Source: Escherichia coli
Lineage (GTDB): Bacteria > Pseudomonadota > Gammaproteobacteria > Enterobacterales > Enterobacteriaceae
Assembly: GCF_048403405.1 (NCBI RefSeq)
Contig: NZ_CP183129.1
DNA: 64,000 nucleotides
Reading direction: 5' to 3' (one strand)
Shown here: piece by piece, positions 24,675 to 59,073 of the stretch
Position numbering within the stretch: the first letter of the stretch is position 1
Layout of the letters: each line of letters begins with the position of its first letter
Notes under the pieces: generated by a model
What the model was told of the DNA's origin: nothing
The model's database searches: none
The model's input: the letters and a program-made list of their open reading frames with translations, nothing else
Position numbers and translations under genes: made by a program

Positions 24675-24692
24675 TTCATTCTTAACTCTCAC

Positions 24693-24727
24693 GCTTACCC
24701 TGAATATTCAGGGTAAGCGGTTTTCCT
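24693..24727 (+). terminator. strong intrinsic terminator after maeB
   Basis: Perfect palindrome GCTTACCCTGAATA/TATTCAGGGTAAGC followed by GGTTTTCC, 19 bp after the maeB stop. Confidence 0.8.
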
Positions 24728-24966
24728 GAAATATATTAGCAAAGCTTATTACTGAGTTTGCGAATAATAAAAAAAGCAGTATATAAAATATCTCGATATT
24801 ATTTTATTTATATTCATGCCTCGCATATGAAAGTTTATTCATAACAGTAAATATCTCTCCATTCTTAGTGATCTACCTCACCTTTTAAACGCGCTTGCCG
24901 AATTTTGTTATTTACTCTGACGAAAAATTGTCACGATACACGAAAGTTTTTCACAGGCGGCGACTC

Positions 24967-25302
24967 ATGGATAAAGAACGCATCATTCAGGAATTTGTGC
25001 CCGGCAAACAGGTCACACTGGCGCATCTCATCGCGCATCCCGGCGAGGAACTGGAGAAGAAAATCGGCGTTCCTGATGCGGGCGCAATCGGCATTATGAC
25101 GCTAACTCCCGGCGAAACGGCGATGATCGCCGGTGATTTAGCACTAAAAGCCGCCGATGTGCATATCGGTTTTCTCGACCGTTTTAGCGGCGCGTTGGTG
25201 ATTTATGGCTCGGTGGGTGCAGTAGAAGAAGCGTTATCACAAACCGTCAGCGGTTTAGGGCGTTTATTAAATTATACGCTTTGTGAAATGACCAAAAGTT
25301 AA
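24967..25302 (+). CDS. eutS: ethanolamine-utilisation microcompartment shell protein EutS (BMC domain)
   Basis: ATG 24967: [57 protein letters not shown]... (111 aa). The track start at 24895 is upstream in-frame in an AT-rich leader. Confidence 0.9.
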
Positions 25303-55688: not shown

Positions 55689-57416
55689 TTAGCAGATTGT
55701 TTTTTCTTCAATGAACTTGTTAACCAGCGTCATTAACTCGTCCGTTGTCGGTTGAGCAAGAGCCTGCTCTGCTAACACCTTCGCATCTTCGAAGTTCGTG
55801 TTACGGATAATCTTCTTAATGCGCGGGATAGAAATGGCGCTCATAGAGAATTCGTCCAGACCCATCCCCAGCAACAGAAGTGTAGCACGTTCATCGCCAG
55901 CAAGCTCACCACACATGCCAGTCCATTTGCCTTCAGCATGAGAAGCATCAATAACTTGCTTGATCAAGTTCAGCACGGACGGTGACATTGGCTGGTAAAG
56001 GTGTGAAATCATATCATTACCACGGTCAACTGCCAGAGTGTACTGCGTTAAATCATTGGTGCCGATACTAAAGAAATCAACTTCTTTGGCTAAATGACGT
56101 GCAATTGTTGCGGCAGCCGGTGTTTCCACCATTACGCCGATTTCAATTGACTCGTCAAACGCTTTACCTTCGTCGCGCAGTTCCTGTTTGTAGATTTCGA
56201 TCTCTTTGCGCAGTGCACGCACTTCTTCAACAGAGATGATCATCGGGAACATAATGCGCAATTTACCGAAAGCCGAGGCACGCAGGATAGCGCGGAGCTG
56301 ATCGCGCAGGATCTCTTTACGATCCATCGCGATACGGATAGCGCGCCAGCCGAGGAACGGGTTCTCTTCTTTCGGGAAGTTCATGTATGGCAGCTCTTTG
56401 TCGCCGCCGATGTCCATGGTACGAACGATAACCGCCTGCGAGCCACACGCTTCAGCCACTGCTTTGTAAGCAGCAAACTGTTCTTCTTCAGTGGGCAGCG
56501 CGTCGCGGTCCATGAACAGAAACTCAGTACGATACAGACCAACGCCTTCAGCGCCGTTACGCTCTGCACCTTCAACGTCACGAACCGTACCAATGTTAGC
56601 GCACACTTCGACCTGGTGACCGTCCAGCGTAATAGCTGGCAGATCTTTCAGTTTAGCAAGCTCTGCTTTTTCAGAAGCCACTTGCTCCTGAACAGCGCGC
56701 ATTTTATCAATAACTTCGTTGGTTGGATTGACGTAAACCTGATTATTTACGGCATCCAGAATCAGATAGTCGTCATTTTTCACCTGAGAGGTGACGCTAC
56801 CGGTACCCACGATAGCAGGCAGTTCCAGAGAACGCGCCATGATAGAGGTGTGGGAAGTACGGCCACCCGCGTCGGTGATGAAACCCAGCACCTTCTTCAG
56901 GTTCAGCTGTGCAGTTTCGGACGGCGTCAGGTCAGCGGCAACCAGAATGACTTCATCCTGAATGGCGCTCAGGTCGATAATCTTCAGGCCCAGGATGTTG
57001 CGCAGCAGGCGCTTACCGATATCACGTACGTCAGCCGCACGTTCTTTCAGGTATTCATCATCCAGCTCTTCCAGGGCAGAAGCCTGACCTTCGATAACTT
57101 CATGAGCAGCTGCGTCAGCTGTCATGTGCTTATCTTTAATCAGGGCTATGATTTCCTGCTCCAGCTCCTCATCTTCGAGCAGCATAATATGCCCTTCAAA
57201 GATGGCTTCTTTTTCTTCACCGAACGTTTCACCAGCTTTCGTTTTGATCGTTTCCAGCTGGGCTGATGCCTTGGCACGACCGCTCAGAAAACGTTCAACT
57301 TCCTGATCAACCTGGTCGGCAGAAATTTTTTTCCGGTCAATGACAATTTCGTCTTCTTTCAGAAGCAGAGCTTTACCGAAAGCGATACCCGGGGATGCTA
57401 AAATGCCTGAAATCAT
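55689..57416 (-). CDS. ptsI: PTS enzyme I
   Basis: 575 aa, [43 protein letters not shown]... Confidence 0.96.
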
Positions 57417-57460: not shown

Positions 57461-57718
57461 TTACTCGAGTTCCGCCATCAGTTTAACCAGATGTTCAACC
57501 GCTTTCTGCTCGTCTTCGCCTTCTGCGGAGATAGTCACAACGGTACCTTGAGTCAGGCCCAGAGTCTGCAGTTTAAACAGGCTTTTCGCGCTGGCGCTTT
57601 TGCCGTTGGAAGTCACAGTAATTTCAGAAGTGAAGCCCTTAGCTTCTTTTACAAACTGGGCAGCAGGGCGGGTGTGCAGACCGTTCGGAGCGGTAATGGT
57701 AACTTCTTGCTGGAACAT
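57461..57718 (-). CDS. ptsH: phosphocarrier protein HPr
   Basis: 85 aa, [29 protein letters not shown]... (His15 context). Confidence 0.96.
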
Positions 57719-57956
57719 TGTATTTCCCCAACTTATAGGTTTAGTGTTGTGGAACTAAAGTCTAGCCTGGCGGTTCGACTTTAGCCTGTATTGTTAGCGC
57801 CAGTTTTTAACAGACGCGACGCACGAAGAGCGCAATACAGTCCATTGCTGGCGGGTGTTGACCGCTGACGTTTCGTACGTCATTAAACATTATGCCGCTA
57901 AAGGAAGAATTGAACCAAATCATAAAATCGATTCAGCTTTGGCTTTTCCTGTAACG

Positions 57957-57980
57957 ATTAATTTCGCGCATCAAAATAAT
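57957..57980 (-). promoter_or_regulatory. candidate Mlc/NagC-type operator in the ptsH upstream region
   Basis: ATTAATTTCGCGCATCAAAATAAT: AT-rich arms around a central CGCG, about 240 bp upstream of ptsH. Consensus recalled from memory only. Confidence 0.3.
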
Positions 57981-58051
57981 TAGTCTGGTTAAATACCAGT
58001 TCCGACAGGCTGAATCAATGCCAGGAGGGGCGAAAGTTTGAAGCAGGCCAC

Positions 58052-58080
58052 AAAAAAGCACCTGAAAAGGTGCTTTTTTA
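58052..58080 (-). terminator. intrinsic terminator after cysK (hairpin usable in both directions)
   Basis: Minus strand: AAGCACC-ttttc-AGGTGCTT followed by TTTTGTGG, 22 bp after the cysK stop. Confidence 0.75.
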
Positions 58081-58101
58081 CGCATTTTTAACAAGCTGGC
58101 A

Positions 58102-59073
58102 TTACTGTTGCAATTCTTTCTCAGTGAAGAGATCGGCAAACAATGCGGTGCTTAAATAACGCTCACCCGATGACGGCAGAATAACCACAATATTCTTGTT
58201 GGTAAAGCTTTCATCTTCTTGTAGTTTCAACGCCGCAGCAACAGCTGCTCCAGAAGAGATACCTGCAAGAATACCTTCTTCTTCCATCAGACGACGCGCG
58301 GTAGAAATGGCTTCTTCATTGGTGATGCCAATGACTTTATCGACCAGCTTGAGATCGAGGTTAGCCGGGATAAAACCTGCGCCAATACCCTGAATTTTAT
58401 GCGGGCCAGGTTTAATCTCTTCACCAGCCAGTGCCTGGGCGATAACTGGAGAATCGGTTGGCTCAACGGCGACAGAGATAAGATCGGTCTTGCCTTTGGT
58501 GCCTTTAATGTAGCGGCTGACGCCAGTCAGCGTACCGCCAGTCCCAACGCCAGCAATAAATACATCAACCTGACCGTCGGTATCTTCCCAGATCTCCGGA
58601 CCGGTGGTTTTTTCGTGAATTTCAGGGTTTGCCGGATTGCTGAATTGTTGCAGCAGCAGGTATTTCTCTGGATTGCTGGCGACAATTTCTTCTGCTTTTT
58701 GGATTGCGCCTTTCATGCCTTTAGCACCTTCGGTCAGCACCAGGTTTGCACCTAACGCTTTCAGCAGCTTGCGGCGTTCAATACTCATGGTTTCTGGCAT
58801 GGTCAGGGTAAGTTTGTAACCGCGAGCGGCAGCGACATAGGCCAGTGCAATCCCGGTATTACCGCTGGTTGGTTCAACCAGTTCAACGCCTGGTTTCAGC
58901 ACGCCGCGCTTTTCGGCATCCCAAATCATGTTGGCACCGATACGGCACTTAACGCTGAAGCTGGGGTTACGAGATTCCACCTTCGCCAGAATGCGTCCGT
59001 TACCGATGCGATTCAGGCGAACCAGCGGCGTGTGACCGATAGTCAGCGAGTTATCTTCAAAAATCTTACTCAT
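58102..59073 (-). CDS. cysK: cysteine synthase A (O-acetylserine sulfhydrylase A)
   Basis: 323 aa, [57 protein letters not shown]... Confidence 0.96.

Follow-up and report, generated by a model that had tools for sequence, protein, structure and literature searches.

The 23-bp quasi-palindrome at positions 57958-57980 of the window, the whole 64-kb stretch of Escherichia coli DNA that was analysed, is very likely the operator through which Mlc controls P0, the distal promoter of ptsHI-crr. The site itself is already known and nothing about it is novel; it is encountered here in an E. coli strain other than K-12, whose ptsH P0 operator is identical over all 23 bp and lies in the same cysK-ptsH-ptsI context, with the strain background as the sole difference. 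Through this operator, and by means of the sequestration of Mlc, the expression of HPr and Enzyme I would follow the actual flux of glucose through PtsG. The value of the result lies in correct annotation and in showing that operators of the ROK family are recognisable from sequence alone; the comparative data described below are a modest addition, in which the promoter-operator geometry is seen to be conserved over four gammaproteobacterial orders.

The operator resides in the spacer between cysK and ptsH (57719-58101), and the measured length of 383 bp agrees with the preliminary description, in which the site had been placed in a cysK-ptsH intergenic region of about 380 bp. The spacer has a composition of 57% A+T and is found in 5425/5426 complete E. 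coli genomes, in many of them with 100% identity. In comparison with K-12 MG1655 it differs at 1/383 positions, a change that falls in the loop of the cysK terminator and outside the operator, for which the K-12 counterpart is NC_000913.3 2533502-2533524. Small ORFs of 42 aa on the plus strand and 68 aa on the minus strand overlap the operator; the site is conserved in the manner of a dyad rather than of a coding region. The features discussed here are collected in the table.

Table. Features of the cysK-ptsH region and of the eutS side, in window coordinates.
Feature	Position	Strand	Basis or remark
23-bp operator of ptsH P0, very likely for Mlc	57958-57980, dyad centre 57969	.	sequence, matrix rank, rule fit, conservation
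Inferred P0 extended -10, TGgTATTTA	57990-57998	-	TAT and flanking bases (nearly) invariant in 36 genera; same layout in Vibrionales
Inferred P0 -35, TTGATT	58013-58018	-	conserved TTG-TT block; spacing, 17 nt upstream of the -10 hexamer
Mapped downstream (P1-type) start	57881	-	Kim et al. 2012, NC_000913.2 2531623, 163 nt upstream of ptsH
CRP-like site TGTGGCCTGCTTCAAA	58037-58052	-	centre about -62 from the inferred P0 start
Probable Cra (FruR) box GCTGAATCGATTTT, downstream of the operator	57924-57937	-	sole window match to RSTGAAWCSNTHHW
cysK intrinsic terminator hairpin, upstream bound of the regulatory region	58052-58079	-	terminator scan; stem conserved
ptsH (HPr) coding sequence, first P0-controlled gene	57461-57718	-	ORF list, K-12 annotation
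ptsI	55689-57416	-	ORF list, K-12 annotation
cysK	58102-59073	-	ORF list
eutS-side matches	24833-24855 and 24907-24929		NagC matrix

Mlc and NagC sites are 23-bp quasi-palindromes in which only the TT and AA at +/-5,6 are invariant, and position +/-11 is A/T in Mlc sites versus C/G in high-affinity NagC sites (PMC4288165); the Mlc-specific A/T at +/-11 is read by linker residues R15/P18. The Mlc consensus has likewise been given as TT-9 bp-AA with AT-rich positions from +/-7 to +/-11 and imperfect dyad symmetry (PMC1874608). The ptsH site, which in the sense of ptsH (minus strand, 57980..57958) reads ATTATTTTGATGCGCGAAATTAA and is centred 251 bp upstream of the ptsH ATG, follows this description closely: TT (-6,-5) is found at 57975-57974 and AA (+5,+6) at 57964-57963 about the centre at 57969, the arms from +/-7 to +/-11 are A/T at 10/10 positions, and the dyad symmetry is imperfect. 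Position +/-11 is A and A in the preferred register, and T and T in a register shifted by 1 that also qualifies; the C/G of high-affinity NagC sites is present in neither. When the 64 kb are searched with the strict form of the rule (TT-N9-AA and A/T at each of the ten positions of the arms), 2 matches are returned, and both are registers of the ptsH operator.

The preliminary description had quoted a 24-mer within 57940-57990 as a Mlc/NagC-type operator candidate, and this 24-mer, ATTAATTTCGCGCATCAAAATAAT, is real and unique, occurring as a single copy at 57957-57980 on the plus strand (ATTATTTTGATGCGCGAAATTAAT in the sense of ptsH), with no second match in the window at up to 3 mismatches and none in 100 shuffles. 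Its assignment to the Mlc/NagC class is borne out by the fit to the rules above, by rank 1 in a matrix search, by its presence in FITBAR Table 2, by conservation, and by the literature on Mlc at P0. The site had also been pictured as AT-rich arms flanking a central CGCG; the arms are indeed 100% A/T, and the CGCG is present but not exactly central, as it occupies 57965-57968, displaced by 1-4 bp from the dyad centre, and is not the defining feature. The wording 'far upstream' of ptsH holds as well, since P0 is placed about 265 bp ahead of the ATG.

A symmetrised scoring matrix was constructed from the 10 NagC operators in FITBAR Table 1 (PMC3098098), with ptsH excluded. With this matrix, 57958-57980 takes rank 1 of all 23-mers in the 64-kb window (~64,000) at 18.2 bits, which is within the range of 17-25 bits scored by the training sites themselves; the matrix was built from NagC, not Mlc, sites, and by itself cannot tell Mlc from NagC. 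The NagC-matrix scan of K-12 published with FITBAR includes, as hit 15 of its Table 2, the sequence attattttgatgcgcgaaattaa upstream of ptsH (PMC3098098), and in a full-text literature search the operator sequence was found in FITBAR only. A further match at 57975-57997 (12.9 bits, overlapping the -10) was considered as a tandem operator and rejected, because it is made up of the -10 and the left operator arm and is not conserved in Vibrionales.

Conservation was assessed on ptsH loci gathered blind to their upstream region, by matching a degenerate DNA pattern for the HPr peptide against species-representative genomes. This HPr-anchored sample holds 120 loci from Enterobacterales, Vibrionales, Pasteurellales, Aeromonadales and Orbales, 110 of which were evaluable. 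A site of at least 15 bits is present within 450 bp upstream of ptsH in 81/110 evaluable loci, where about 1.7 would be expected by chance, a roughly 48-fold excess; the background was taken from the remainder of the same loci (1.0 Mb), with 0.015 sites of at least 15 bits per 450 bp. The upstream site also outranks every other position of its locus in 86/110. When the spacers of 36 Enterobacterales genera were aligned with MAFFT, their mean identity to the window sequence was 0.89 over the operator versus 0.62 overall, the arm positions being invariant and the centre variable. The parts conserved across species are the TTATTT and AAATTA arms, the G at -3 and the CG at +3,+4, and the dyad is retained in Vibrionales and Aeromonas even where the sequence changes. 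Both +/-11 ends are A/T in 33 of the 34 distinct Enterobacterales versions and in all 11 Vibrionales sites (11/11).

The spacing between the operator and a conserved promoter is likewise constant in Enterobacterales, Vibrionales, Pasteurellales and Aeromonas. In the conserved module the order is cysK terminator, CRP-like TGTG-N-TCAAA, TTGATT, 17 nt, TGgTATTTA, 9 nt and operator, the last gap separating the extended -10 from the operator downstream of it. Vibrionales keep this plan with TTGATC, TGGTAATAT, 9 nt and the operator TTTATTTTTAGCTTCAAAATAAA, and the promoter-operator layouts of Pasteurellales and Aeromonas are recognisably similar. A simple consensus sigma-70 scan called no canonical promoter in the spacer, P0 included, and P0 was therefore assigned from conservation. 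Its start would lie near 57983 +/-1, about 7 nt after the -10, and with a start at this position the operator would extend from about +4 to +26. A DNase I footprint of Mlc on pts P0 has been reported to extend from about +1 to +25, with polymerase binding blocked by Mlc (Kim et al. 1999, J Biol Chem 274:25398), in agreement with the geometry deduced here. The proposed -10 of P0 falls within a small inverted repeat, CTGGT-attta-ACCAG (57985-57999), which was marked as 'terminator-like' for the minus strand and is probably of no significance.

The genome-wide table of transcription start sites of Kim et al. 2012 has no ptsH start near the predicted P0 position at 57983. The ptsH starts that it does contain are 163, 69 and 30 nt upstream of the ATG, corresponding to 57881, 57787 and 57748 in the window (Kim et al. 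2012). The first of these, of P1 type, has CATAAT as its -10 at 57889-57894. The downstream P1 region (57800-57890) is poorly conserved in Enterobacterales, with an identity of 0.3-0.5, which contrasts with the block comprising P0 and the CRP, Mlc and Cra elements and with the ~60 nt immediately preceding the ATG. A perfect dyad, TGACGT-acgaa-ACGTCA, is also seen in the P1 region at about 57867-57883.

Two further elements accompany P0. The CRP-like site TGTGGCCTGCTTCAAA has 2 mismatches to TGTGA-N6-TCACA and is not significant alone; its TGTG and TCAAA vary little or not at all between genera, and CRP sites have been mentioned for the pts promoter (PMC8085971). Downstream of the operator, the block holding GCTGAATCGATTTT is conserved at 0.8-0.9 across Enterobacterales. 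The pattern that it matches, RSTGAAWCSNTHHW, is taken here to be the Cra consensus. GCTGAATCGATTTT is thus the probable site of Cra action in the pts promoter region, consistent with the description of ptsHI as Cra-repressed (PMC8085971, PMC2759082).

Published work places Mlc at this promoter: repression by a complex of Mlc on promoter 0 of ptsH/ptsI is described (PMC2238713), ptsHI are repressed by Mlc at P0 (PMC1156936, PMC8085971), and ptsHI expression is highest on glucose, along with that of ptsG and manXYZ (PMC8085971). Combined with the arrangement deduced here, a mechanism can be proposed in which the ROK-family repressor Mlc would bind the 23-bp quasi-palindrome and, from a position at about +4 to +26, would exclude RNA polymerase from P0 and leave the downstream P1-type promoters free. 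During glucose transport, dephosphorylated EIICB(Glc) (PtsG) would, as described in the literature, sequester Mlc at the membrane; the operator would then be vacated and P0 would fire, presumably with the aid of cAMP-CRP bound to the conserved site near -62.

One rival reading is that the site serves NagC, or NagC and Mlc together, which would tie ptsHI to the availability of N-acetylglucosamine. The logos of NagC and Mlc are essentially indistinguishable and overproduced proteins give cross-repression (PMC4288165), and it was with a NagC matrix that the ptsH site was detected, both here and in FITBAR. The identity of position +/-11 decides against it, as high-affinity NagC sites have C/G there and the ptsH site has A/A or T/T, an A/T character kept in all but one of the Enterobacterales versions; at physiological protein levels, moreover, no cross-regulation is reported (PMC4288165). 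A NagC operator was therefore rejected on the +/-11 rule and is considered very unlikely, and the assignment of the operator as Mlc-type rather than NagC-type is supported by that rule together with the reported absence of cross-regulation in vivo (PMC4288165).

An AT-rich palindrome arising by chance, or a generic promoter-proximal feature such as the initial transcribed region or a Fis/IHF-type site, would involve no specific repressor at all. In an A+T-rich spacer this has some appeal, as the bare rule is present in 27% of dinucleotide-shuffled 64-kb windows (0.34 matches per window) and at least once in 2.6% of shuffled spacers, and on these frequencies the bare rule alone is only modestly significant. 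The rank on an independent matrix and the conservation across species nevertheless indicate far more than chance, the strong upstream site recurring in 81 genomes, and invariant symmetric arms around a variable centre, with the dyad retained in Vibrionales and Aeromonas, form the pattern of an operator for a dimeric HTH protein, making such an explanation exceedingly improbable. The dyad could instead act in RNA, as a hairpin at the 5' end of the P0 transcript, given that a P0 transcript would include the site, which is an inverted repeat, albeit an imperfect one. Folding speaks against this: the predicted energy is -2.3 kcal/mol (z = +0.35), 121/200 shuffles fold at least as well, and the arms are not paired with each other in the minimum-energy structure, for which reason the hairpin was rejected and is given next to no credence. 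The preferred reading is thus that of an Mlc operator at P0.

In further comparing the ptsH operator to other sites, the K-12 spacers upstream of ptsG, manX, malT and mlc, which are all Mlc-repressed genes (PMC1156936), were scanned with a uniform-background matrix and the best non-training matches were taken; these scan matches are candidates for the native Mlc operators of those genes, namely the autoregulatory site of mlc, the sites of ptsG, the proximal site of manX and the site of malT. They comprise ATTATTTTACTCTGTGTAATAAA (12.5 bits) and GTTTTTTTAAAGCTCGTAATTAA (9.2 bits) as the first and second matches for ptsG, ATTTTTTCGATATCTAAAATAAA for manX (12.1 bits), TTAATTACGAAGCGCAAAAAAAA for malT (11.0 bits) and ATTATTTCGGAGCGCGAAAATAT for mlc (11.3 bits). 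On the same uniform-background matrix the ptsH operator scores 17.0 bits, versus 9.2-12.5 for the scan matches of the other Mlc targets, and it is accordingly nearer to the shared motif than those of mlc, ptsG, manX and malT. All of them share the 23-bp TT-N9-AA quasi-palindrome with AT-rich arms, and identity to the ptsH operator among these best scan matches is 18/23 for mlc, 16-17/23 for ptsG, 15/23 for manX and 15/23 for malT. Position +/-11 is A/T in all of these scan matches except the second ptsG match, which starts with G. In number of sites, ptsH differs from ptsG and Salmonella hilE, as it apparently has a single site whereas those have two sites ~100 bp apart (PMC1874608). The NagC operators of FITBAR Table 1 (nagE/nagB, chiP, chbB, glmU and fimB) share the core motif and length with the ptsH operator, which departs from them in having A/T at +/-11 where C/G is typical of high-affinity NagC operators (PMC4288165).

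Outside the Enterobacterales, the orthologous operators of Aeromonas (loci L024, L060, L068, L087 and L102) read GTTATTTTTCGTTATAAAATAAT and lie ~218 bp upstream of ptsH, with L110 at -342. The Aeromonas sequence GTTATTTTTCGTTATAAAATAAT has G at -11, a NagC-like signature, and A. media also has CTTATTTTTTGGGGTAAAATAAC, with C/C at +/-11, just after the cysK terminator. Conceivably, the CRP site, P0 and the Mlc operator are an ancient module that Enterobacterales, Vibrionales and Pasteurellales have retained with a constant 9 nt between -10 and operator, and the G acquired at -11 in Aeromonas may record a switch in the control of ptsH, in that lineage, from an Mlc-like regulator to a NagC-like one of the ROK family; this proposal is a speculative one and rather unlikely to hold. 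Several Vibrio genomes (loci L001, L011, L022, L029 and L101) have a second HPr paralogue that is not beside cysK, with N-termini of MHKKNVVITA or MYKKTAVITA, and the second HPr of L011 has an 18.4-bit Mlc/NagC-like site 150 bp upstream.

Elsewhere in the window, the maeB-eutS spacer (24675-24967) contains two matches to the NagC-type matrix upstream of eutS, 74 bp apart. One, GTTTATTCATAACAGTAAATATC, scores 16.2 bits and has G/C at +/-11; the other, GTTATTTACTCTGACGAAAAATT, scores 12.0 bits and is the same as the FITBAR 'eutS' match. The pair flanks a CRP-like sequence, AGTGATCTACCTCACC, at 24867-24882, and from this arrangement it could be a NagC operator pair on the promoter of the ethanolamine-utilisation operon. 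The distance from the eutS-side site (24907) to the ptsH operator (57980) is 33.1 kb in the window versus 42.4 kb in K-12 (FITBAR positions 2573887 and 2531523). This shorter distance indicates that the window strain is without ~9 kb present between the two sites in K-12. The absent stretch may include the CPZ-55 prophage in the eut operon.
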